This document shows, piece by piece, positions 4,591-62,166 of a stretch of DNA of 64,000 nt. The stretch lies in NCBI GenBank assembly GCA_903831805.1, contig CAIKZD010000017.1, forward strand, positions 12,358 through 76,357, read 5' to 3'. This stretch comes from an uncultured bacterium (GTDB taxonomy: Bacteria > Patescibacteriota > Minisyncoccia > Moranbacterales > UBA2206). Under the pieces are notes generated by a model that was not told where the DNA came from, searched no databases, and worked only from the letters and a program-made list of their open reading frames with translations. The position numbers and the translations under genes are program-made. How positions within the stretch are numbered: the stretch's first letter is position 1; every line of letters begins with the position of its first letter.

Positions 4591-5259
4591 ATGAAATACG
4601 AAGTAGAAATCAAAAGTCTTTTGCAAACTAACGAAAATGCGCAGAAGTTGCGGGATAAGTTGGCTGAACAGGGGATTGAAATAAAAAATAAGTACAAACA
4701 ACTTAATCACTATTTTCTGAACGACGGGGATTTCACTAAATTAGAAGAAGAGTTGTTACCTTTGTTTTCTGATGAGAAAAAAGAAAAACTGAAGAAAATT
4801 TTAGAAGAAGGCCAGAACCATTCTTTGAGAACTAGAGAGATGAACGGCGAGGCATTCTTTGTGATCAAAGCCTCGGTGGATGATACCACTTCGTCCAATG
4901 GAATTTTGCGCATGGAATTTGAAGAGACGGCTGGCATTTCCATGGACGCACTGAACAAGCTTTTGGAAGAGGCGGGATTTTCCTATCAAGCTAAATGGTC
5001 GCGAGAAAGAGAGGAATATGGCAAAGATGATTTCTATATCACGATCGACAAGAACGCTGGCTATGGATTTTTGTCGGAGTTTGAGATTCAGACGGAAGAC
5101 CAAGAAAAATTAGGCGAGACGAAACAGCGAATTGTGGATTTCATGGGAGATCTTGGGCTCCAAGAACTTTCTCAAGATCGTCTGGAACGGATGTTCAAGT
5201 TCTACAACGAAAACTGGCGTGAATATTACGGCACGGAGAATGTTTTTAATGTGGAGTAG
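4591..5259 (+). CDS. CYTH-domain protein (CyaB-like class IV adenylyl cyclase / triphosphatase family)
   Basis: MKYEVEIKSLL N-terminus and an acidic EFEIQTED motif typical of CYTH. The ATG at 4591 is preferred over the ORF-track start. Confidence 0.6.
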   Translation: MKYEVEIKSLLQTNENAQKLRDKLAEQGIEIKNKYKQLNHYFLNDGDFTKLEEELLPLFSDEKKEKLKKILEEGQNHSLRTREMNGEAFFVIKASVDDTTSSNGILRMEFEETAGISMDALNKLLEEAGFSYQAKWSREREEYGKDDFYITIDKNAGYGFLSEFEIQTEDQEKLGETKQRIVDFMGDLGLQELSQDRLERMFKFYNENWREYYGTENVFNVE

Positions 5260-5329
5260 CCAAATATTGCTAAATTCTGGCATATTGGCTAGAATGGTAG
5301 AGAAGAATAATAGTTAGATATATTTAGAT

Positions 5330-6895
5330 ATGGCCAAATATACACCGGTTATCGGGATGGAAGTGCATGTGGAGTTGAAGACTGCTTCGAAGATGTTTTG
5401 TGATTCCAAGAACGGGATGGGAGAGGAGCGCGAGCCGAATGTGAATATCTGTCCGGTCTGTACCGGGCAACCGGGGACTTTGCCGGTGCCAAATGTTCAA
5501 GCCATTGAATTTGTACAATTGGCCGGTTTGGCTTTGGGTTGCACTTTGCGGTTGGATTCCAAATTTGACCGCAAGAACTATTTCTATCCGGATCTGCCGA
5601 AGGGCTACCAGATTTCGCAATATGATCAACCGTTGTGCGAAAAAGGAAAGCTAAGAATTGATGGGAAAGAAATCGGCGTGACTAGAATTCATTTGGAAGA
5701 AGACACGGGGAAACTCATTCATCCGAAAGGCGTGAATTATACCTTAGTTGATTTCAATCGGGCTGGTGTGCCTCTCATGGAACTGGTGACGGAACCGGAC
5801 ATTGAGACGGGCGAAGAGGCGCGCTTGTTCTGTCAGAAGCTGCAACAGATCTGCCGCTATTTGGAAATTTCGGACGCGGATATGGAGAAAGGCCACATGC
5901 GTTGTGAAGCTAACATCTCGCTCTACAAAGAAGGGGAAGACAAATTGTCCGGCACCAAAGTGGAAGTGAAAAACATCAATAGTTTTAAATTTGTGGAAAA
6001 AGCCATTGCTTTTGAAATTGAACGTCAGACGGAACTTTTGGATAAGGGCAAAGAAATTGTGCAGGAGACGCGCGGCTGGGATGCTAATCGCGGCGAAACA
6101 GTGTCACAAAGAAAAAAGGAATCGGCCCATGACTATCGCTATTTCCCCGAGCCGGACATTCCACCGCTCAAGTTTGATGAAAATTATGTCGAAGCGCTGC
6201 GCCGGAAATTGCCGGAACTACCGGACGCTAAAATTGCTCGGTTTGAAAAGGAATATGCATTGCCGAAAAGTGACGTGGAAATTTTAACGGCCGATAAAGA
6301 AATGGCGGAATATTTTGAAGAAGTGGCGAGTGAAATAAAAGAAAAAATTTCCTGCCATGAGATTGAAGCGGCGGAAAACAAAGCCTTGAAATTGGCCGCC
6401 AACTATATCATTACCGAACTCAGGAAACATTTGTCAGAACATAATCATAGTATGGCAGACATTAAAATTACTCCGGAGAATTATGCGGAATTGGTGGGGC
6501 TAGTAGCTTGCGGGAAGATTAATTCCACCGCCGCGCAAACAGTATTAGCAGAAATGTACAAAACCGGTGGTGATCCTTCGCAGATAATTTCCGAAAAGAA
6601 TTTAGCACAAATGGACGGTGGAGATGAAATGGAGGCCATGGTGGAAAAAGTCTTGGCAGCCAATGCGGCTTCGGTGGCGGATTTCAAAGCCGGCAAAGAG
6701 AACGCGTTGAAATTTTTGATGGGACAAGTGATGTCGGCTACGCAAGGAAGAGCTAATCCTATGGCTGTTAATGAATTACTTAGAAAGAAATTATCAGGCA
6801 GTACAGATGTCAGATCCGCCTCTGGCGGAAAAGAATCGGGCGGCAAAGCCAATCCGAGCGCAGCCATGGAAATGATTAAGAAAAAAATTACATAG
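5330..6895 (+). CDS. gatB: Asp-tRNA(Asn)/Glu-tRNA(Gln) amidotransferase subunit B
   Basis: MAKYTPVIGMEVHVELKT...CPVCTGQPGTLP and a C-terminal GatB/YqeY-type domain. Confidence 0.9.
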   Translation: MAKYTPVIGMEVHVELKTASKMFCDSKNGMGEEREPNVNICPVCTGQPGTLPVPNVQAIEFVQLAGLALGCTLRLDSKFDRKNYFYPDLPKGYQISQYDQPLCEKGKLRIDGKEIGVTRIHLEEDTGKLIHPKGVNYTLVDFNRAGVPLMELVTEPDIETGEEARLFCQKLQQICRYLEISDADMEKGHMRCEANISLYKEGEDKLSGTKVEVKNINSFKFVEKAIAFEIERQTELLDKGKEIVQETRGWDANRGETVSQRKKESAHDYRYFPEPDIPPLKFDENYVEALRRKLPELPDAKIARFEKEYALPKSDVEILTADKEMAEYFEEVASEIKEKISCHEIEAAENKALKLAANYIITELRKHLSEHNHSMADIKITPENYAELVGLVACGKINSTAAQTVLAEMYKTGGDPSQIISEKNLAQMDGGDEMEAMVEKVLAANAASVADFKAGKENALKFLMGQVMSATQGRANPMAVNELLRKKLSGSTDVRSASGGKESGGKANPSAAMEMIKKKIT

Positions 6896-12025: not shown

Positions 12026-13492
12026 TTATGCAAGTCTTCCTTCTAAATTCCAAGTATTGACGCGTGTTATCCTAACTTCAAGAAGCTTGCCAGCCAACTT
12101 TTTTTGGCTGGTTTTAATTTTTACATTTTTAAGGGTGCGTGTGTGTCCGAAATATTTACCAGCCCTACCATTGTCTACTAATACGTCAAAAGTTTTGCCG
12201 AGATATTGCTGATTGTTTTTGAGCGCCGACGCGGCTAGAATTTCATTTAAATATTTCTCGCGGCGAACTTTTTCTTCTTTTTTGATGTTATCCTTCAATT
12301 TGAACGCAGCTGTGCCTGGGCGCGGGGAGAATTGGCCAAAATATGACATATCATATTGCACTCGACGCATCACGCCGGCGGTTTTTTCCAGCTGGACTTT
12401 AGTTTCGCCGGGGAAACCGACAATGATGTCGGACGACAATGCAAAAATCTTCTCTGGTTTATTTTTAGCAAAACTATTTTTAATTTTTTCAATCAGCTGT
12501 AAATAATGCGCGCGGGTATAGTGGCGGTTCATATTTTTCAAAATTGTGTCGTCGCCCGACTGGATAGGCAAGTGTACTGCTTCGCAAACTTTTTCCAAGC
12601 TAGTGATGGTTTCAATCAGTTCAGCTGTCATATCTTTTGGGTGCGGCGTCATAAAACGGATCCAAAAATCTCCCGGAATGGCATTGATGGTTTTGAGGAG
12701 GTCAGAAAAATTCACAACATCACCCTCTCTGTCTCGAGTACGAGACATCTCTCCCGAGTACAGGAGAGATGGAAACATTTTGCCCCCTCTCCCGTACTCG
12801 GGAGAGGGCTGGGGAGAGGGCAATGGTTCGTAGCTGTTGACGTTCTGTCCAAGGAGCGTTATTTCTTTAACGCCTGATTTGATGAGCTTTTTAATTTCTT
12901 GCAAGATTTCTTCGGCCGGGCGTGAAACTTCTCGTCCGCGGGCGTAAGGCACGACGCAGTATGAGCAGAAGTTGTTGCAGCCGGTCATGATGGGGACATA
13001 AGCTTGGGCAGAGTTTGCGTATTTTGGAGTGACGGTTAAATAGCAATTGTCATTCTGAGCGGAGCATAGCGGAGTCGAAGAATCTGCTTTGTGGTGTAAC
13101 TGGCGATGATTATTAGTAGATTCTTCGACTTCGTCCGAGTACGGACTTCGCTCAGAATGACATAATAAAAAATTTTCAAGTTCTTGCATGAAGTCTTTGA
13201 TTTCACAAAACAAAGCCACCTTATTTTTCAATTTTTCCTGTATATCTTTCCGATTGGCCAGGCAGCCGGTCAGCACTATTTTTGTTTGCGGATTATTTTT
13301 CCAAAGATTATGGATCTGTCCGTACGCTCGGTCTTCAGCCATTTTTCTGACACCGCAAGTGTTGAAAATTACGATATTCGCTTTCGTAATGTCTTTGGCT
13401 GGCTGGATTTTTTGCGCTTCCAAAAACCCGGCCATCCGCTCTGAATCGCTGACATTCATCTGGCAGCCGAAGGTTTTGATGAAATATTGCAT
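12026..13492 (-). CDS. miaB: MiaB-family radical-SAM methylthiotransferase (tRNA-i6A37 methylthiotransferase-like), carrying two in-frame repeat insertions
   Basis: MQYFIKTFGCQMNVSDSE (MTTase N domain), CNNFCSYCVVPYARG radical-SAM motif and a C-terminal TRAM domain. Adjacent to miaA. Confidence 0.75.
   Translation of the reverse strand: MQYFIKTFGCQMNVSDSERMAGFLEAQKIQPAKDITKANIVIFNTCGVRKMAEDRAYGQIHNLWKNNPQTKIVLTGCLANRKDIQEKLKNKVALFCEIKDFMQELENFLLCHSERSPYSDEVEESTNNHRQLHHKADSSTPLCSAQNDNCYLTVTPKYANSAQAYVPIMTGCNNFCSYCVVPYARGREVSRPAEEILQEIKKLIKSGVKEITLLGQNVNSYEPLPSPQPSPEYGRGGKMFPSLLYSGEMSRTRDREGDVVNFSDLLKTINAIPGDFWIRFMTPHPKDMTAELIETITSLEKVCEAVHLPIQSGDDTILKNMNRHYTRAHYLQLIEKIKNSFAKNKPEKIFALSSDIIVGFPGETKVQLEKTAGVMRRVQYDMSYFGQFSPRPGTAAFKLKDNIKKEEKVRREKYLNEILAASALKNNQQYLGKTFDVLVDNGRAGKYFGHTRTLKNVKIKTSQKKLAGKLLEVRITRVNTWNLEGRLA
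12722..12830. repeat. compound AGTA/TACT-loop hairpin module in frame in the MiaB-family CDS
   Basis: GTCTCGAGTACGAGAC, TCTCTCCCGAGTACAGGAGAGA and CCCTCTCCCGTACTCGGGAGAGGG. Encodes ...EPLPSPQPSPEYGRGGKMFPSLLYSGEMSRTRDREG.... Confidence 0.7.
13048..13162. repeat. MITE-like element family 1 (TIR TGTCATTCTGAGCGGAGC...GCTCAGAATGACA), copy inside the MiaB-family CDS with the reading frame preserved
   Basis: Terminal inverted repeats match the intergenic copies. The ORF is continuous through it (...LLCHSERSPYSDEVEESTNNHRQLHHKADSSTPLCSAQNDNCY...) in the linker between the MTTase and radical-SAM domains. Confidence 0.7.
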
Positions 13493-13547: not shown

Positions 13548-15299
13548 TTATTTTTTTTCTTTAATTTCTTTTTTAATCTTTTCCAAAAATTCTTCAATCT
13601 TCATAGTCTCCTGATTTTCTTCCCCTCGCGTTCGCACAGATACACTATTGTCCGCAGCTTCTTTTTCGCCCATTACTAAGATGTATGGCACTTTTTGTTT
13701 GGCCGCGGTGCGTATGCGTTTGCCAAGCGATTCATCGGAGTCATCAATTTTCGCGCGAATGCCAGACGCGATGAATCGCATCTCTACTTCTTTGGCGTAA
13801 TCTTTAAACTTTTCTGAAACTGGCAGAATTACAGCTTGCACAGGGGAGAGCCATGTTGGGAAAGCGCCGGCATAGTGTTCGATGAGAATGCCCATGAAAC
13901 GTTCGAAAGAGCCCATAATAGTTCTATGAATAAGAACTGGTGTTTTAGCTTGGCCGTCCGCATCGATGTAACTGCAGTCAAATTTCAGCGGCATCTGGAA
14001 ATCCAATTGAATAGTGGCGCATTGCCAAGTGCGGCCGATGGCGTCTTTCAATTGGAAATCGATTTTGGGCCCATAGAAAGCGCCGTCTTTTTCTTTGAGA
14101 CCATAATTCTCGCCGTATAGTTCACCCAGAATTTTTTTCAAATCAATTTCGGCTTTGTCCCAAACGGCGATGTCGCCCATGAAATCATCCGGTCGAGTGG
14201 AGAGATAGGCTTTGTACTCAAGACCAAAAGGTTTATAAATCTTATCCACTAGCTTAACCACGTTCTTAATTTCTTCTTCCACCTGATCCGGGCGGATGAA
14301 AATGTGGGCGTCATCTTGAGTGAATTGCTGCACGCGGAACAGGCCCCCGAGCTGGCCGGATTTTTCGTGGCGAGTGATGAGGCCCGGTTCGGCGTAACGC
14401 AAGGGGAAGTCGCGGTATGATTTCATGGAACTGTTGTAAATCATAATCGCCCCGGGGCAATCCATCGGGCGCAAGGCAAATTGTTTGTCGCCCTCAAGAC
14501 TGGTGACAAAGTACATGTCGTCTTTATAATGATCCCAGTGGCCGGACTTTTTCCAAATGGAGACATCCAACATTGACGGGCAAAGAATGGTGTCATAAGC
14601 AAATTCTTTTTGCGCTTCCATCCAGAAATTTTTCAGCTCATTGAAAATCACAGCGCCTTTCGGATGGAAAAATGGTATTCCGGGTGCCACATCATGAAAA
14701 GAAAACAGATCCAGCTCTTTCCCAATTTTCCGATGGTCTCTTTTTTCCGCTTCTTCCAACATATGCAGATAATCTTTCAGTTCAGCTTTAGCGGCAAAGG
14801 CTACGCCATAAATTCTTTGTAACATCTTGTTTTTTTCATCGCCTTTCCAATAGGCCCCGGAAATTTTGGTCAGTTTCAATGCGTCGGACCTGATTTCACC
14901 GGTCGAATCAAGATGCGGGCCGCGGCAAAGGTCGACAAACGCCCCGGTTTTATACACAGAAACTACGCCCTCGCCGGCTTTGATGAGGTCTTCAATTATT
15001 TCGACTTTGTAATCCTGGCCGGCCCGCTGAAAATCTTCGATGGCGTTGCCGACTGTCATCTCCGCTCGTTCAAATTTATGATCGGCTTTGATTATGACTC
15101 GCATCTTTTCTTCCAAGATGGGCAGGTCTTCCGGAATGAGAGTACGCGGTAGGTCGAAGTCATAATAGAAGCCGTTTTCGATGGCCGGCCCCATGGCAAA
15201 CTTAGCTTCGGGAAACATTTCCAGGACCGCGGCGGCCAAAACATGTGCCGCGCTGTGGCGTAAGATCTCCAAATTTTCGGGCGTGGTTTTTTCTGACAT
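13548..15299 (-). CDS. thrS: threonyl-tRNA synthetase (short form lacking the N-terminal TGS domain)
   Basis: MSEKTTPENLEILRHSAAHVLAAAV..., class II motifs and a C-terminal anticodon-binding domain. Confidence 0.9.
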   Translation of the reverse strand: MSEKTTPENLEILRHSAAHVLAAAVLEMFPEAKFAMGPAIENGFYYDFDLPRTLIPEDLPILEEKMRVIIKADHKFERAEMTVGNAIEDFQRAGQDYKVEIIEDLIKAGEGVVSVYKTGAFVDLCRGPHLDSTGEIRSDALKLTKISGAYWKGDEKNKMLQRIYGVAFAAKAELKDYLHMLEEAEKRDHRKIGKELDLFSFHDVAPGIPFFHPKGAVIFNELKNFWMEAQKEFAYDTILCPSMLDVSIWKKSGHWDHYKDDMYFVTSLEGDKQFALRPMDCPGAIMIYNSSMKSYRDFPLRYAEPGLITRHEKSGQLGGLFRVQQFTQDDAHIFIRPDQVEEEIKNVVKLVDKIYKPFGLEYKAYLSTRPDDFMGDIAVWDKAEIDLKKILGELYGENYGLKEKDGAFYGPKIDFQLKDAIGRTWQCATIQLDFQMPLKFDCSYIDADGQAKTPVLIHRTIMGSFERFMGILIEHYAGAFPTWLSPVQAVILPVSEKFKDYAKEVEMRFIASGIRAKIDDSDESLGKRIRTAAKQKVPYILVMGEKEAADNSVSVRTRGEENQETMKIEEFLEKIKKEIKEKK

Positions 15300-25196: not shown

Positions 25197-25353
25197 TGTC
25201 ATTCTGAGCGAAGCCTGTAATCAGGCGCAGTCGAAGAATCTGCTCGGTGTAACTACTAGTTTACCTATAAAGCACAAGTCTCGAGGTAACCACTGGCAGA
25301 TCCTTCGACTGCGTTCATCGCCTCATCGGCGACTCACTCCGCTCAGGATGACA
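25197..25353. repeat. MITE-like element family 1 copy (intergenic)
   Basis: TGTCATTCTGAGCGAAGC...GTCGAAGAATCTGC ... GCAGATCCTTCGACTGCG...GCTCAGGATGACA. Confidence 0.75.
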
Positions 25354-34959: not shown

Positions 34960-35205
34960 TTCGGAAAGAAATCCTTTTTTAAGGAGAGTAGACTCTGACG
35001 GGTTCCGCTTCAGCGGCGGATGAAGGCCCGTAATAGCCGTTTCAGAGGGTTGATTAGTTGAATAGTTTATTAGTTGATTAGGAAAGAAGCCTAATTAACC
35101 AATAAACTAAGTGACTAATTAACTAAATTAAGGTGGTACCGCGATTAAAGTCGCCCTTAAACGTAAGTTTTTGGGTGTTTTTTTATTTTTAATATACACA
35201 ATTAA
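34960..35205 (+). promoter_or_regulatory. T-box riboswitch leader of ileS
   Basis: Canonical T-box sequence AAATTAAGGTGGTACCGCG at 35126..35143, followed by hairpin CCCTTAAAC...GTTTTTGGGTGTTTTTTTATTTTT (terminator). Upstream are a stem-I-like nested hairpin and a long imperfect inverted repeat. Confidence 0.6.
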
Positions 35206-35219
35206 ACATTTAATTTATC

Positions 35220-35367
35220 CGTCATCCTGAGCGGAGTGAGCCCGCTTCAGCGGGGGAACGAAGTCGAAGGATCTACTTACATTACCTCAGGCTTATTGAT
35301 TTATAAAAAAGCCAGTGGTAACGCAAAATAGATTCTTCGACTTCGCTACGCTCCGCTCAGAATGACG
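35220..35367. repeat. MITE-like element family 1 copy, inserted between the ileS T-box terminator and the ileS start codon
   Basis: CGTCATCCTGAGCGGAGTGAGC...GTCGAAGGATCTAC ... TAGATTCTTCGACTTCGCTACGCTCCGCTCAGAATGACG. Confidence 0.75.
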
Positions 35368-35376
35368 ACTTATACT

Positions 35377-38300
35377 ATGAGTTTTAGAAAAGTAGAATCG
35401 AATCAAAAATTTCCGGAGATGGAAATGGAAGTGCTTAAATTTTGGGGGGAGAATAAAATTTTTGAGAAATCTTTAGAGAATCGCAAGGACGCTAAAGAAT
35501 ATAGTTTTTATGATGGACCGCCGTTTGCCACGGGCACGCCGCACTATGGACATATCGTGGCTAGTGTCATGAAGGATGTAGTTCCGAGATATTGGACCAT
35601 GAAGGGATATTACGTCGAGCGTAAATGGGGGTGGGATTGTCATGGGCTACCGATTGAGAATATCGTGGAAAAAGAATTAGGCTCAAAGAAAAAGAAAGAT
35701 ATTGTAGAAATGGGAGTGGAAAAATTTAATGAGCTTTGCCGCAGCAAGGTTCTGACCTATGTGGATGTGTGGGAGAAAGTTGTCAGTCGCATGGGGCGTT
35801 GGGCGGATATGAAAACCTCTTATCGGACGATGGACAAAGACTATATGGAAAGTGTATGGTGGGTTTTTAAAGAGCTTTGGGATAATGGACTAATCTATGA
35901 AGACTATCGCTCGATGCATGTTTGCCCAAGGTGTGAAACTACTTTGTCGCAATCAGAAGTTTCTGAAGGATATAAAGATATAAAAGATTTGTCAGTCATT
36001 GCAAAGTTTGAGCTGATTGATGAGCCGGGGACTTTTGTTTTAGCGTGGACGACGACACCCTGGACATTGCCGGGCAATGTGGCTTTGGCAGTGGGAGAAG
36101 AATTAGAATATGTGAAAGTGAAAGATTTATGGATTCCTCTGGATAAAGATAATATAAAGCCATTAGAAGAAGGAAAAACTCCGCCGGCAGTAGAAATGAA
36201 AGAGGAATATTATATTATTGAGAAGAATTCTTTTGAAAAATATAAAAAGATGTTTCATAACGCTGAGCCAAACGTTATAGAAGAATTTAAAGGTAAAAAT
36301 TTGATTGGCAAAAAATACGTTCCGCTTTTTGATTTTTATAGTAAAGACGAAAAATTAGCTAATCATAACAATGGTTGGAAAATTTATGCCGGTGATTTTG
36401 TGACGACCGAAGAAGGCACAGGCGTGGTGCACATAGCCCCGGCCTTTGGAGAAGATGATATGCGACTAGGGAAAGAAAATAATTTGCCCTTTGTGCAACA
36501 CGTGGCAATGGACGGCAGTTTCAAAGAAGAGTTGGGAGAACTGGCCGGACTGAACGTAAAACCGATTGAAAATCCACAAGCGACGGATGTGGAGATTATA
36601 AAATATCTAGCCAAGCATGGCACGCTCTTCCATAAAGAAAAATTTGAACATAGCTATCCGCATTGTTGGCGCTGTGACACGCCACTCATCAACTATGCGA
36701 CGAGTTCATGGTTTGTAGCTGTCACTAAAATCAAAGACAAAATGTTGGAGGTGGCCAAAAATATTAATTGGTCGCCGGCTAACATGAAAGAAGGCCGGTT
36801 CGGCAATTGGCTAGAAGGCGCGCGCGATTGGTCCATTTCCCGCCAGAGATTTTGGGCTTCTGTCATGCCGATCTGGGTGTGCGAAGAATGCGGCGAACAG
36901 AAAGTTTTTGGTAGTGTGGCGGAATTGGAAAAATTGAGCGGCGAGAAAATTGATGATTTGCACAAACACATCGTCGACAAAGTTACATTTCCTTGCGAAA
37001 AGTGTCAGAAGAAAATGAAGCGCGTGCCGGATGTACTCGACACTTGGTTTGACAGTGGCTCAATGCCATACGCTCAAAAACATTATCCGTTTGAAAATAA
37101 AGAACGCTTCGACAAAACTTTTCCCGCCAATTTCATTGCGGAAGGTGTGGATCAAACCCGGGCCTGGTTCTATTATTTGCATGTTATTGCCAGTGGCGTG
37201 AAAGAGCAAGAGGCTTTTCAGAATGTTATTGTGAATGGGATTGTTCTCGCTGAAGATGGCAAGAAGATGAGTAAGAAGCTACAAAATTATCCGGATCCAA
37301 TGGAAATGTTTGAAAAATATGGGGCGGACAGCGTGCGGCACTATCTGATGAGCTCGCCGGTGGTGGCTGCGCAAAATATGAATTTCATGGAAAGTGAGGT
37401 GGGTGAAATCACGCGAGGAATGATGCGCATGCTCTGGAATTCCTATTCATTCTTCGTGCTTTACGCGGACATCGACAAATTCGAAGCGGACAAAAACTTT
37501 GATCCAAAAAAACTGAATGGTCTTTTGGACCGCTGGATGGTTTCAGAACTACATATGCTGATTAAAGATTTCAATGGGCACATGGAAAACTATGAATTGC
37601 ATAAAGCGGCGCGCCTCTTGCCGAAGTTTATCGATAATCTTTCCAACTGGTACATTCGCCGTTCGCGTAAACGCTTTTGGAAAAGTGAAAACGATGGCGA
37701 CAAGAATGAAGCTTATCAGACTTTGTATTATGTTTTGGTAGAACTTTCCAAAGTTATGGCACCGTTCACGCCATTTATCGCGGAAGAAATTTGGAGAAAT
37801 TTGACGAGTGGCGTTTCAGAACCCCTCCGCCCCTTCGGGACACATCCCCTGAGTACAGGGGAGGGGGAAGTTGCGTCTGTGCATCTGCAAGATTTTCCGG
37901 CGGCAGATGAAAAATTGATTGATGAGAAAGTGAATAAAAATATGCAAGATCTTCGTGAAATTATAACTCTTGGCTTACAAGATCGGGCTAAAAACGGAAT
38001 TAAGGTTCGTCAGCCATTGAAAAGGGTTATTCTTGGACAAAAATACGCCGATGTTTTTAATGAAACTATTAATAAGATTGAATGGAGCAGTATTCTCATA
38101 GAAGAACTTAATGTTAAAGGCGCGGAGCTTGGAACGAAAACTGAAACAGTTATGATTGATACAGAAATCACTCCCGAACTGAAGCTTGAAGGGGCTGCGC
38201 GGGAAATCATTCGTCATATTCAACAGATGAGAAAAGATGCCGGCTACGAAGTGGATAACCGAATTGAGGTGTGGTATGATGGCTTAAAAGAGGTTTTTGA

Positions 38301-38439
38301 TAGTTTTGGAAGCTTAATCGCCAAAGAAACTTTGGCGAATAATGTTCTTTTGAAAAGCGAATCAGCGCTAGTGGCTGATTTAGAGAAAGTTTTTGAGCTG
38401 GACGGGGAGAAGGTTAGTGTTGCTATCAAAAAGAAATAA
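35377..38439 (+). CDS. ileS: isoleucyl-tRNA synthetase (long, eukaryote/archaeal-like type)
   Basis: HYGH and KMSKK class I motifs, CP1 editing domain and a C-terminal zinc region. Start moved downstream of the MITE-derived ATG. Confidence 0.9.
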   Translation: MSFRKVESNQKFPEMEMEVLKFWGENKIFEKSLENRKDAKEYSFYDGPPFATGTPHYGHIVASVMKDVVPRYWTMKGYYVERKWGWDCHGLPIENIVEKELGSKKKKDIVEMGVEKFNELCRSKVLTYVDVWEKVVSRMGRWADMKTSYRTMDKDYMESVWWVFKELWDNGLIYEDYRSMHVCPRCETTLSQSEVSEGYKDIKDLSVIAKFELIDEPGTFVLAWTTTPWTLPGNVALAVGEELEYVKVKDLWIPLDKDNIKPLEEGKTPPAVEMKEEYYIIEKNSFEKYKKMFHNAEPNVIEEFKGKNLIGKKYVPLFDFYSKDEKLANHNNGWKIYAGDFVTTEEGTGVVHIAPAFGEDDMRLGKENNLPFVQHVAMDGSFKEELGELAGLNVKPIENPQATDVEIIKYLAKHGTLFHKEKFEHSYPHCWRCDTPLINYATSSWFVAVTKIKDKMLEVAKNINWSPANMKEGRFGNWLEGARDWSISRQRFWASVMPIWVCEECGEQKVFGSVAELEKLSGEKIDDLHKHIVDKVTFPCEKCQKKMKRVPDVLDTWFDSGSMPYAQKHYPFENKERFDKTFPANFIAEGVDQTRAWFYYLHVIASGVKEQEAFQNVIVNGIVLAEDGKKMSKKLQNYPDPMEMFEKYGADSVRHYLMSSPVVAAQNMNFMESEVGEITRGMMRMLWNSYSFFVLYADIDKFEADKNFDPKKLNGLLDRWMVSELHMLIKDFNGHMENYELHKAARLLPKFIDNLSNWYIRRSRKRFWKSENDGDKNEAYQTLYYVLVELSKVMAPFTPFIAEEIWRNLTSGVSEPLRPFGTHPLSTGEGEVASVHLQDFPAADEKLIDEKVNKNMQDLREIITLGLQDRAKNGIKVRQPLKRVILGQKYADVFNETINKIEWSSILIEELNVKGAELGTKTETVMIDTEITPELKLEGAAREIIRHIQQMRKDAGYEVDNRIEVWYDGLKEVFDSFGSLIAKETLANNVLLKSESALVADLEKVFELDGEKVSVAIKKK
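37821..37868. repeat. AGTA-loop hairpin module inserted in frame in ileS
   Basis: CCCCTCCGCCCCTTCGGGACACATCCCCTGAGTACAGGGGAGGGGGAA, encoding SEPLRPFGTHPLSTGEGEV. Confidence 0.7.
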
Positions 38440-46883: not shown

Positions 46884-47032
46884 GTCATCCTGAGCGGAGT
46901 GAGTCGCCGATAAGGCGAGGAACGCAGTCGAAGAATCTGCTTTGTGATAATTCTTGTTTTGTGATTTATAGTAAAATTAGCAGCTACACCAGGCAGATTC
47001 TTCGACTTCGCTACGCTCCGCTCAGAATGACA
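46884..47032. repeat. MITE-like element family 1 copy (intergenic)
   Basis: TGTCATCCTGAGCGGAGTGAGTCGCC...GTCGAAGAATCTGC ... GCAGATTCTTCGACTTCGCTACGCTCCGCTCAGAATGACA. Confidence 0.8.
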
Positions 47033-47079
47033 AATCACTACATCGTTTAAGTATAGAGCCAATCTTGTTTGACTTTTTC

Positions 47080-47265
47080 AGCTTTTAGGGATAGGATAAA
47101 GATACTTCTGGGGTTTGGCTCCCGGAGGAAAATTTAAAAAGAGTCTCGACATTTAGTCGGGGAAATCAGGTGGAACCGCGGACTTGATGTAAGTGATTAA
47201 TTACTTACATCGAAGCTCGTCCTGAACATGCGATTTTTTTGTATGTTCTGGACGGGCTTTTTGTT
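47080..47265 (+). promoter_or_regulatory. T-box riboswitch leader of glyQS
   Basis: AAATCAGGTGGAACCGCGG (47163..47181) matches the T-box consensus AANNNGGGTGGNACCGCGG. A downstream hairpin TTGATGTAAGT...ACTTACATCGAAG and a U-run follow; an upstream hairpin loop contains GGC (Gly). Confidence 0.6.
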
Positions 47266-47338
47266 TCTCTCTACGAATTACGAATTGGTACGAATATACG
47301 AATTAGAAAAGATAATTTTTTAAAAATACCAAAACAAT

Positions 47339-48745
47339 ATGAGTGAAAAAAACAATAATGAACAATCCATGATGGAGAAAATGACATCGCTGTGCAAAAG
47401 GCGGGGGTTTGTTTTTCCGAGCAGTGAAATTTATGGCGGGATGCAGGCCATTTATGATTACGGTCATTATGGCACACTGCTCAAAAATAATATTCGTGAT
47501 GCGTGGCTCCGCCACATGGTGCAGTTACGCTCGGATGTCGTAGGATTGGATAGCGCCATTTTCATGCATCCGAAAACTTGGGTGGCCTCGGGACACGTGG
47601 GCGGGTTCAACGATCCGCAGGCGGATTGCAAAAAATGTAAGTCACGTTTCCGGGCCGATCATATTTTGGAAGAATTTGGTATCAACGCTGATAAAGCACC
47701 TTTGGAAGAACTAAATGCACACTTGGACAAATTGCGCGCGGAGAAAAAATTGAAATGTCCCAATTGCGGTTCGACCGATCTGACGGAAGCCAAGATTTTC
47801 TCTCTCATGGTCAAATCCAATATCGGTTCGCCAACGGACGAACTGAAAGAAGAAAATGTGGTCTATCTGCGGCCGGAAACTTGTGGCGGCATTTATTTGG
47901 AATACAAAAATACCGTCGATTCACTGCATGTGAAATTGCCATTCGGCATCGCGCAAGTCGGCAAAGCTTTCCGGAATGAAATCGTGGCGCGCCAATTCAT
48001 TTTCCGCACGCGCGAATTTGAGCAGATGGAAATGCAATATTTCTTGCATCCGAGCATGATGAAAGATAAATATGAAGATTGGAAGAAAACGCGCTGGCAA
48101 TGGTACTTAGAATACGGCATTGCCGAAAATGAAATTCGCTGGTATAAGCACGAAAAATTGGCGCATTATGCTTCGGAGGCGTTTGACGTGGAATATAATT
48201 TCAAAACTCTCGGCGGCTTCAAAGAGGTGGAAGGCGTGCATGCGCGCGGTGATTGGGATCTGTCTCAGCATGCCAAGTTTTCCGGCGTGGACCTGAGCTA
48301 TTTCGACGAAAAATCTGGCGAAAGATTCATCCCACACATCATGGAAACTTCCGTGGGTCTGAATCGTTTGGTGCTGATGTTCCTCGACCAAGCCTACCAA
48401 GAAGAAACAGTGGGCGAGGACACGCGAGTGGTTTTGAAATTAGACAAACGTCTGGCGCCGATCAAAGTAGCGATTTTGCCACTTTCCAAAAAAGAAGAAT
48501 TATCCAAGCCAGCCAGAGAAATTTATGAAAAATTACGTGAGAATTTTATGGCCGAATATGACGAAACACAATCGATTGGCAAGCGCTACCGCCGCCAAGA
48601 TGAAATCGGCACACCGTTCTGCGTGACAGTCGATTTTGAAACGCTGAATGATCAATCGGTGACCGTGCGAGAACGTGATAGCATGAAACAAGAACGGGTT
48701 AAGATAGGGAAGTTAGAAAGTTATTTGAGAGAGAATTTATCATAA
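47339..48745 (+). CDS. glyQS: glycyl-tRNA synthetase (alpha2 dimeric type)
   Basis: RRGFVFPSSEIYGGMQAIYDYGHYG, the hallmark of alpha2 GlyRS; class II motifs. Confidence 0.85.
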   Translation: MSEKNNNEQSMMEKMTSLCKRRGFVFPSSEIYGGMQAIYDYGHYGTLLKNNIRDAWLRHMVQLRSDVVGLDSAIFMHPKTWVASGHVGGFNDPQADCKKCKSRFRADHILEEFGINADKAPLEELNAHLDKLRAEKKLKCPNCGSTDLTEAKIFSLMVKSNIGSPTDELKEENVVYLRPETCGGIYLEYKNTVDSLHVKLPFGIAQVGKAFRNEIVARQFIFRTREFEQMEMQYFLHPSMMKDKYEDWKKTRWQWYLEYGIAENEIRWYKHEKLAHYASEAFDVEYNFKTLGGFKEVEGVHARGDWDLSQHAKFSGVDLSYFDEKSGERFIPHIMETSVGLNRLVLMFLDQAYQEETVGEDTRVVLKLDKRLAPIKVAILPLSKKEELSKPAREIYEKLRENFMAEYDETQSIGKRYRRQDEIGTPFCVTVDFETLNDQSVTVRERDSMKQERVKIGKLESYLRENLS

Positions 48746-55010: not shown

Positions 55011-55148
55011 TGTCATTCTGAGCGAAGCGTAGCGAAGTCGAAGAATCTGCTTTGTGTTTCCAGTGGTTATCCTATAAGGGTAAAACTTGTGGTAATGCAA
55101 AGTAGATCCTTCGGCTGCGTCCGAGTACGGACTTCGCTCATGATGACA
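55011..55148. repeat. MITE-like element family 1 copy (intergenic)
   Basis: TGTCATTCTGAGCGAAGCGTAGCGAAGTCGAAGAATCTGC ... GATCCTTCGGCTGCGTCCGAGTACGGACTTCGCTCATGATGACA. The right arm contains the GTCCG-AGTA-CGGAC hairpin. Confidence 0.75.
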
Positions 55149-62023: not shown

Positions 62024-62166
62024 GTCATTCTGAGCGAAGCGAAGTCGAAGAATCTACTTTGTGTTTCCATTGGTTATGCTATAGATTGCAAAGCTAGTGG
62101 TAACGCAGGGCAGATCCTTCGACTGCGTTCCTCCGCTAGCGCGTCGTTACTTCGCTCAGGATGACA
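62024..62166. repeat. MITE-like element family 1 copy (between the minus-strand gene and atpD)
   Basis: TGTCATTCTGAGCGAAGCGAAGTCGAAGAATCTAC ... GCAGATCCTTCGACTGCG...CTTCGCTCAGGATGACA. Confidence 0.75.

Follow-up and report, generated by a model that had tools for sequence, protein, structure and literature searches.

A putative minimal glycine T-box without the known tRNA-holding structures upstream of glyQS in a Patescibacteria genome

We have analyzed the leader of glyQS, the gene encoding the dimeric glycyl-tRNA synthetase (GlyRS), in a 64,000-nt stretch of DNA from an uncultured bacterium of the Moranbacterales (Patescibacteriota; assembly GCA_903831805.1, contig CAIKZD010000017.1, positions 12,358 to 76,357). 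We refer to this whole stretch as the window. The leader is probably a tRNA(Gly)-sensing T-box transcription attenuator of minimal architecture, built without the structures by which T-boxes are known to hold the tRNA; we would put the probability of this reading at about 0.8. It contains conserved, covarying structures, a terminator and an antiterminator that are mutually exclusive, a codon that matches the gene downstream, and a promoter-like site positioned just before the first helix. The binding of tRNA and the sensing of its charge are taken from the established T-box mechanism, and would apply here by analogy.

The elements of the leader and the gene that it precedes are as follows.

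47069 to 47097, plus strand: sigma-70-type promoter-like site, with −35 TTGACT (47069-47074), a 17-nt spacer and −10 TAGGAT (47092-47097), 9 of 12 matches
47105 to 47128, plus strand: ultrashort Stem I, an 8-bp hairpin (47105-47112 paired with 47121-47128) in the minimum free energy (MFE) fold
47117 to 47119, plus strand: specifier codon GGC (Gly) in the apical loop of Stem I, preceded by an invariant U
47129 to 47143, plus strand: A-rich single-stranded linker AAAAUUUAAAAAGAG, 15 nt, in place of Stem II and IIA/B, ending in a conserved AGAG before Stem III
47144 to 47162, plus strand: Stem III, UCUCGAC (47144-47150), loop AUUUA and GUCGGGG (47156-47162), from the Rfam alignment and the MFE fold
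47163 to 47224, plus strand: T-box sequence and antiterminator, comprising the purine linker AAAU (47163-47166), helices A1 and A2 and a 7-nt bulge
47183 to 47215, plus strand: insertion atop helix A2, a 14-bp hairpin with one bulged G (47183-47196 with 47201-47215, loop UUAA)
47213 to 47266, plus strand: intrinsic terminator, a 21-bp hairpin (47213-47259) and the U-tract UUUUUGUUU (47258-47266), −30.2 kcal/mol
47339 to 48745, plus strand: glyQS-type (dimeric) glycine–tRNA ligase, the putatively regulated gene (NF003211 617.8 bits, cut-off 312; TIGR00389 488.8 bits)

The leader was compared with related sequences. Eighty species-level glyQS loci were retrieved, about 25 of them resembling the candidate phyla radiation (CPR). 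Under a strict motif search two of the 80 proved to carry the element, L013 (Moraniibacteriota) and L020. Metagenomes were scanned with a pattern in which nothing but the core and the antiterminator's 3′ strand is fixed, and this returned 23 loci. GlyRS lies downstream in every one of these with enough sequence except L096 and L102, where the gene encodes threonyl-tRNA synthetase (ThrRS). Removal of the duplicates L091 and L101, the truncated L089 and the thrS-type L093, L096 and L102 gave 20 distinct glyQS leaders including that of the window. One further member, L002 from a Nealsonbacteria genome, was found independently of the search pattern with the covariance model described below, making 21 glyQS leaders with an analyzable Stem I. 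The GlyRS proteins encoded behind the related leaders are 49–81% identical to that of the window. The hairpins in L088, L090, L094 and L099, the loop in L013 and the promoter in L020 were assigned by homology and not by automatic picking.

In the MFE fold Stem I has no kink-turn (K-turn), internal specifier loop, AG bulge or distal loop. The 5′ UU (47106-47107) is paired with A-G on the 3′ side (47126-47127), resulting in a continuous helix. The apical loop GUUUGGCU (47113-47120) becomes a 6-nt loop UUUGGC if the optional pair G47113-U47120 closes, and otherwise has eight nucleotides. Within it GGC, a glycine codon, stands upstream of a GlyRS gene. UGG is present in the apical loop of all 20 aligned glyQS leaders, and of L002 also (21/21). 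The third base of the codon is C in 17 of these loops, A in three (L013, L085 and L100, hence GGA) and U in one; all are glycine codons. A uridine lies 5′ to the codon in 25 of 25 apical loops when four thrS leaders are included (UGGN in the 21 glyQS leaders and UACC in the thrS leaders).

The loops of the aligned leaders are of two types. Type A (G-N-U-U-G-G-N-N, with UU before the codon) is found in 14 leaders including the window, and type B (R-G-U-G-G-C-R-Y) in six. Their Stem I helices were tested separately because MAFFT alignment of all 20 displaced the type B loops by one column. Both partners vary in 10 of the 11 type A pairs, with covariation of 0.529 versus 0.237 when shuffled (0/500 shuffles) and no more than 0.20 in slid controls. 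In type B the cells are 100% paired and five of six pairs are compensatory. At the base of Stem I, ten type A leaders resemble a K-turn (C-stem, a 3–4-nt bulge and GA...GA), with covariation in the C-stem; those of type A without this feature are the window, L082, L083 and L092. L002 carries the same hairpin, GGGA[GAUUGGCA]CCC. In five type A leaders (L090, L092, L098, L099 and L100) the specifier loop is closed by A opposite C, and by G-C in the others; the A-C pair (A3 columns 24/33) coincides with a loop that ends in G or A instead of U.

We found no conserved helix between Stem I and Stem III in the homologues, and in the window this stretch is 15 unstructured nucleotides. The distance from loop to core is 53–69 nt in 19 of the 20 leaders, leaving an A-rich linker of ~10–25 nt, and this is too short for a Stem II or IIA/B domain. 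The AGAG with which the linker ends is aligned by Rfam to a conserved AGuG. Stem III follows, and is succeeded directly by the purines AAAU. Its 5′ register was chosen partly from pairing, and anchor-defined trimmed constructs were used since the lengths vary; on this basis 98.2% of cells are paired in 19 homologues and six of six pairs are compensatory (1.10 versus 0.35 shuffled, 0/500).

The T-box sequence AAATCAGGTGGAACCGCGG at 47163-47181 has one mismatch to the consensus (AGG where the consensus has GGG). Helix A1 is formed by CAGG (47167-47170) with CCUG (47221-47224) and helix A2 by GCGG (47178-47181) with UCGU (47217-47220). They flank the 7-nt bulge UGGAACC (47171-47177), which fits the pattern UGGNACC. 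A1 covaries, since it is CUAG/CUAG in L002, a compensatory change from CAGG/CCUG, and it is CGAG/CUCG and AAGG/CCUU in two further T-box leaders of the window, upstream of thrS and ileS respectively, that are discussed below. The bulge has UGGA in the glycine leader and UGGU in the ileS leader. Helix A2 is capped in the window by a 33-nt insertion in the Rfam alignment, also seen in the constrained fold, that forms a hairpin with strands CUUGAUGUAAGUGA/UUACUUACAUC(G)AAG. This is not conserved. In the homologues it ranges from 4 to ~44 nt, and is often only a GAAA or UGAA loop, so we rejected the idea that it is a conserved tRNA contact compensating for those that are missing.

The 5′ strand of the terminator contains the 3′ strand of the antiterminator, with a 12-nt overlap at 47213-47224, so that the two structures cannot coexist. 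The antiterminator has a folding energy of −20.0 kcal/mol (constrained fold, with UGGAACC bulged out) compared with −30.2 kcal/mol for the terminator, and the latter also appears in the MFE fold of the whole leader. This geometry is common to 24 of 24 related leaders, with terminators of −21 to −32 and antiterminators of −6 to −20 kcal/mol, and a U-tract directly after the terminator. Within the terminator, 95.3% of cells are paired in 20 homologues, and the covariation of 0.479 compares with 0.256 shuffled (0/500) and at most 0.078 in slid controls; none of the eight compensatory pairs falls within the segment that the search pattern fixes. The apical loop of the terminator in the window holds a run of seven uridines (47234-47240), and a run of five or more is found at this apex in 12 of the 24 leaders. 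In order of transcription it comes once the antiterminator has been completed, with the terminator's 3′ strand still to be made.

A first-pass annotation of this DNA, made from the sequence by a model, had proposed a T-box leader of glyQS with its T-box sequence at 47163-47181, and had picked out a hairpin loop containing GGC as the glycine specifier. Both are borne out, the loop being 47113-47120 and the downstream open reading frame (ORF) encoding GlyRS. It also described an 11–12-bp hairpin followed by U7, placed as a terminator. Both features exist (47183-47215 and 47234-47240), but not in that role: the hairpin is the A2 insertion and the U7 run is the loop of the true terminator at 47213-47259. 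The folding of alternative structures and the comparison with glyQS leaders elsewhere, suggested there as checks, gave the mutually exclusive pair above and a design common to 21 leaders including the window, with covariation in Stem I, Stem III and the terminator.

Seven nucleotides separate the promoter-like site from the Stem I hairpin, and the predicted start of transcription (~47104-47105) is at the foot of Stem I. The homologous leaders have stronger promoters, with up to 12 of 12 matches, and their −10 boxes end 15–37 nt before the specifier loop. Between its start and the loop, therefore, the transcript could accommodate no more than the 5′ half of a short hairpin. The region 47060-47270 as a whole has a folding energy of −73.8 kcal/mol (z score −5.9), which was equalled by none of 200 shuffled sequences.

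The standard database model fails to detect leaders of this type at its gathering score. RF00230 gave no such match anywhere in the 64-kb window, and a permissive local scan gave 28.4 bits for the glyQS leader (local E = 1.8e-4) where the gathering score is 93. Only positions 149-216 of the model (Stem III, T-box sequence and antiterminator) are aligned; positions 1-148, corresponding to Stem I, are wholly unaligned. A permissive Rfam scan of 15 CPR glyQS loci did not report even the L013 leader. The first-pass annotation had offered an RF00230 scan as a check, and would have taken the lack of a covariance-model hit as refutation. As a real element scores below the threshold, this would have rejected it wrongly. 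We trained a covariance model, R1, on 12 type A leaders with the window left out. Over the full model length it matches 47106-47224 of the window with a score of 58.5 bits (E = 6e-12); the alignment has deletions at the K-turn positions, as would be expected. Applied to the 80 species-level glyQS loci it found L013, L020 (type B and outside the training set), and the new member L002 (47.6 bits).

The same annotation had drawn support from glyQS being the textbook T-box-regulated gene of Firmicutes. That argument is inapplicable, because the nearest relatives of the window GlyRS are all from metagenome-assembled genomes (MAGs) of Patescibacteria/CPR. The long Stem I of the textbook case is also absent. 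Among 185,579 species genomes the closest relatives have 55–74% identity, and come from Uhrbacteria (74%), Nealsonbacteria (71%), Nomurabacteria, Saccharibacteria, Kuenenbacteria and others. The identical protein is encoded on at least 17 metagenome contigs.

How does this leader relate to known T-boxes? Four classes have been published (PMC10482949). Class I has a long Stem I with a motif of two interdigitated T-loops (IDTM), an internal specifier loop and Stem II. Class II, the glyQS class, is similar but has a linker instead of Stem II. Class III has a short Stem I with the specifier in its apical loop, requires Stem II and is mostly translational, while class IV has a Stem I of intermediate length. 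Binding of tRNA is augmented by the IDTM, by the S-turn of Stem II, or by both, and a T-box is currently understood to need at least one of the two (PMC10482949). The window leader combines the Stem I of class III with the linker of class II and the terminator of classes I and II. Neither holding device is therefore present, and the leader belongs to none of these classes.

It resembles the class II leaders of Bacillus subtilis and Oceanobacillus iheyensis glyQS in its glycine specificity, GGC specifier and dimeric GlyRS gene, and in having a linker in the place of Stem II, Stem III, a UGGA bulge, exclusive antiterminator and terminator, and probably a pause before the decision point. Unlike them it lacks the long Stem I, internal specifier loop, AG bulge, distal loop and T-loop platform that contacts the tRNA elbow; its specifier is apical, it has no K-turn and its host belongs to Patescibacteria, not Firmicutes. 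With the class III leaders of Nocardia farcinica and Mycobacterium ileS, as far as the work of Sherwood et al. (2015) is summarized in PMC7583486 and PMC10482949, it shares a short Stem I without an IDTM, a specifier in an apical loop of 5–6 nt (the closed form of the window loop having six) and an A2 insertion of a kind frequent in that class. According to those summaries, however, class III leaders hold the anticodon stem-loop in a clamp that requires Stem II and the IIA/B pseudoknot, are mostly translational by way of a sequestrator, and are isoleucine-specific and actinobacterial. The window leader has a 15-nt linker, an intrinsic terminator with a U-tract, glycine specificity and a CPR host. 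The staphylococcal glyS T-box with stem Sa (PMC4574755, PMC9177973) is also a glycine T-box with a lineage-specific hairpin in the antiterminator/terminator domain, comparable to 47183-47215. Yet stem Sa is conserved within staphylococci and accompanied by a full-length Stem I, whereas the insertion varies from 4 to ~44 nt in the relatives of the window and Stem I is truncated.

Published work makes a glycine T-box without the platform or Stem II plausible. Glycine T-boxes already dispense with Stem II because the GGC:GCC interaction is strong (PMC7583486). Deletion of the platform from B. subtilis glyQS raised the RT50 by ~16-fold, but tRNA-dependent readthrough was not abolished, and anchoring is helped by a pause that immediately precedes the decision point (PMC13001445).

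From these elements we can propose how the leader would work. Transcription would start at ~47104, and the first structure to form would be the 8-bp hairpin presenting GGC in its apical loop. After the 15-nt linker and Stem III would come the T-box sequence, able to fold as an antiterminator (47167-47224) in which UGGA is exposed. By default the more stable terminator (47213-47259 and the U-tract) would capture the 3′ strand of the antiterminator, and transcription would stop 72 nt short of glyQS. If uncharged tRNA(Gly) is plentiful, the anticodon would pair with GGC and the free U73-C-C-A terminus with UGGA. This would stabilize the antiterminator and allow RNA polymerase to read through into glyQS. 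Charged tRNA would be unable to make the second contact, with UGGA. In bacterial tRNA(Gly) the discriminator base is U73, and the UGGU of the window ileS leader is consistent with a bulge base that complements the tRNA discriminator. The tRNA would be held by neither the Stem I distal platform, the elbow-binding IDTM, nor the Stem II S-turn, unlike in every described class. We hypothesize that the three G-C codon–anticodon pairs compensate for these missing contacts, perhaps extended by pairing of the invariant U (UU in type A) with A37/A38. Such pairing could occur because the anticodon loops of Escherichia coli and B. subtilis tRNA(Gly) read UUGCCAA. The U-run at the terminator apex may be a polymerase pause site giving the tRNA time to bind.

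A number of observations weigh against this mechanism. Transcriptional T-boxes generally need the IDTM for fast co-transcriptional capture, and truncated Stem I elements barely bind tRNA in the absence of Stem II (PMC7583486; PMC11297988). ARAGORN found no tRNA gene in the 64-kb window, in ~18 kb of flanking sequence (L105 and L109) or in the 23 related loci, and the U73, anticodon and positions 37/38 of tRNA(Gly) are assumed from general bacterial knowledge. The K-turn kept by 10 of the 14 type A leaders is absent from the window, the −10 box TAGGAT is weak, and the local RF00230 score is far below the gathering score. The element is sporadic, being present in three of the 80 species-level glyQS loci when those found with R1 are counted. 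Moreover the core is fixed by the search pattern, so its conservation within the metagenome set is not independent evidence.

A rival idea is that the leader is a decayed remnant that no longer senses tRNA, and now acts as a constitutive attenuator or one controlled otherwise, for example by a protein or a general effect of transcription speed. Loss of both holding devices, and in the window of the K-turn too, together with the sporadic occurrence among CPR glyQS loci, would be in keeping with this. But UGG is kept, wobble variation is confined to glycine codons and the UGGAACC bulge is retained across leaders whose GlyRS proteins are only 49–81% identical to that of the window; the codon becomes ACC in front of thrS, and compensatory changes maintain every helix. 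None of this is expected of a remnant released from selection for pairing with tRNA, and we regard decay as unlikely. Regulation might alternatively be translational as in class III, an alternative helix sequestering the ribosome-binding site, since short Stem I elements with apical specifiers and A2 insertions have mostly been described in translational T-boxes (PMC7583486; PMC10482949). The competing helix, however, is a 21-bp GC-rich hairpin followed by UUUUUGUUU, with the same arrangement in 24 of 24 related leaders. The glyQS start codon lies outside that helix, 72 nt 3′ to the U-tract, and in L020 another ORF stands between leader and glyQS. These features make a translational switch distinctly improbable.

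The gene context and T-box core are those of the textbook case, and the first-pass annotation implied a canonical class II glyQS T-box; the leader would then have a Bacillus-like long Stem I with K-turn, internal specifier loop and distal platform, and its low Rfam score would reflect divergence only. We consider this very improbable, given that RF00230 positions 1-148 are unaligned and GGC lies in the apical loop of an 8-bp hairpin. The promoter-like site ends just 7 nt before that hairpin, those of the homologues end 15–37 nt before the loop, and what lies upstream of the promoter is a mobile palindromic element, not Stem I. Lastly, the similarity might be a chance match beside the ordinary terminator of the upstream gene. 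The 12-mer core GGTGGNACCGCG can indeed arise at random. It occurs exactly twice in the 64 kb where 0.38 matches are expected (allowing up to one mismatch), and 5 of 100 shuffled sequences contained at least two such matches. Yet both copies are upstream of, and co-oriented with, aminoacyl-tRNA synthetase genes. The gene upstream of the glyQS leader is on the opposite strand, the architecture recurs with covariation in more than 20 independent loci, and the leave-one-out model matches with E = 6e-12, so coincidence is hardly credible.

Two other T-box leaders in the window, both scoring below the RF00230 threshold, came to light through R1 and a motif search.

34966 to 35195, plus strand: ileS T-box leader (RF00230 aligned over its whole length at 34966-35161, 42.7 bits where the gathering score is 93), bulge UGGU
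about 15511 to 15310, minus strand: thrS T-box leader (RF00230 22.1 bits, ~15482-15310), core CGAG-UGGAACC-...-CUCG

The ileS leader, which precedes an ORF at 35377-38439 (TIGR00392 927.5 bits), has its core GGTGGTACCGCG at 35132-35143, 5′ to a hairpin and a run of uridines. Both a longer Stem I and a region resembling Stem II are retained in this leader, which has a candidate AUA specifier in CCCGUAAUAGCC. The thrS leader has a promoter TTGACT-17-TATAAT and precedes an ORF at 15299..13548 (TIGR00418 701.5 bits). Its Stem I is a short K-turn-based hairpin, GAAGC-CUU-GA-CGCG[ACUACCAAC]CGCU-GA-GCUUC, with the threonine codon ACC in the apical loop ACUACCAAC. The MFE is −57.1 kcal/mol (z score −6.5); the region 3′ to the antiterminator pairs with the Stem III region, which would be an unusual terminator geometry. 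Three leaders of the thrS type were present among the metagenome loci, L096 (~240-460), L102 (~1840-1982) and L093 (minus strand, 1740-1899 when oriented), with the core CAGGUGGAACCGCGGGAG..CUCUCGUCCUG. Those of L096 and L102 are upstream of thrS, and too little sequence follows that of L093 to show its gene. In all three a strong promoter is immediately followed by an apical hairpin loop containing ACC, and they look like threonine T-boxes of the short-Stem-I transcriptional type. The thrS leaders have extra hairpins, possibly Stem II-like, before Stem III, and the glyQS leaders do not. With GGN in the glyQS leaders and ACC in the thrS leaders, the apical-loop codon changes with the synthetase gene, in comparisons inside one genome as well as between genomes.

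On balance we favor the view that the glyQS leaders represent a fifth architectural class of T-box, transcriptional and glycine-specific, without the elbow platform or the Stem II clamp. Capture of tRNA would depend on only two short RNA–RNA duplexes, one with the apical-loop codon (possibly 4–5 bp by way of U/UU with A37/A38) and one with the NCCA end, and might be assisted by a pause at the apex U-run. They would form part of a wider, undescribed repertoire of glyQS, thrS and ileS leaders in Patescibacteria/CPR that goes undetected by models of the RF00230 type. TBDB was built from RF00230 matches and an Actinobacteria-only class II model (PMC7778990), and so would not contain such leaders. 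We found no paper linking T-boxes with Patescibacteria, the candidate phyla radiation or Parcubacteria in the literature searched, which omits most subscription journals.

A natural, conserved and apparently transcriptional T-box without either holding device would define a minimal tRNA-sensing unit in a leader of ~165 nt, and with it how much of a T-box is really needed becomes directly testable. T-box regulation is usually called a Gram-positive trait; here a CPR bacterium with a small genome would use it for no fewer than three synthetase genes. Rfam-based surveys miss such leaders, so that counts of CPR riboswitches are underestimates. Minimal T-boxes would also be attractive as parts for engineered tRNA sensors.

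Some further features of these loci may be recorded. In L020 an ORF of ~123 aa without assigned function (1105-1475) lies between the glycine T-box leader and glyQS, and the leader would thus control a two-gene operon. The window contains six palindromic copies of ~115–155 nt, at 13049-13161, 25198-25352, 35221-35366, 46884-47031, 55012-55147 and 62024-62165. They have inverted ends GTCATYCTGAGCGRAG, with 12 arm matches where 0.01 are expected, and look like a miniature inverted-repeat transposable element (MITE) or a repetitive extragenic palindromic (REP)-type repeat. One copy separates the ileS start codon from the T-box terminator that precedes it, and another is located just upstream of the promoter of the glyQS leader. 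The latter (46884-47031) was considered as part of the leader and rejected, as it is a six-copy repeat upstream of the promoter. In the flanking sequence L109, ~2–3 kb to the left of the start of the window, a bAvd-like gene (5129-6531) adjoins a reverse transcriptase gene beside secE-nusG-L11-L1, a pair resembling those of diversity-generating retroelements.

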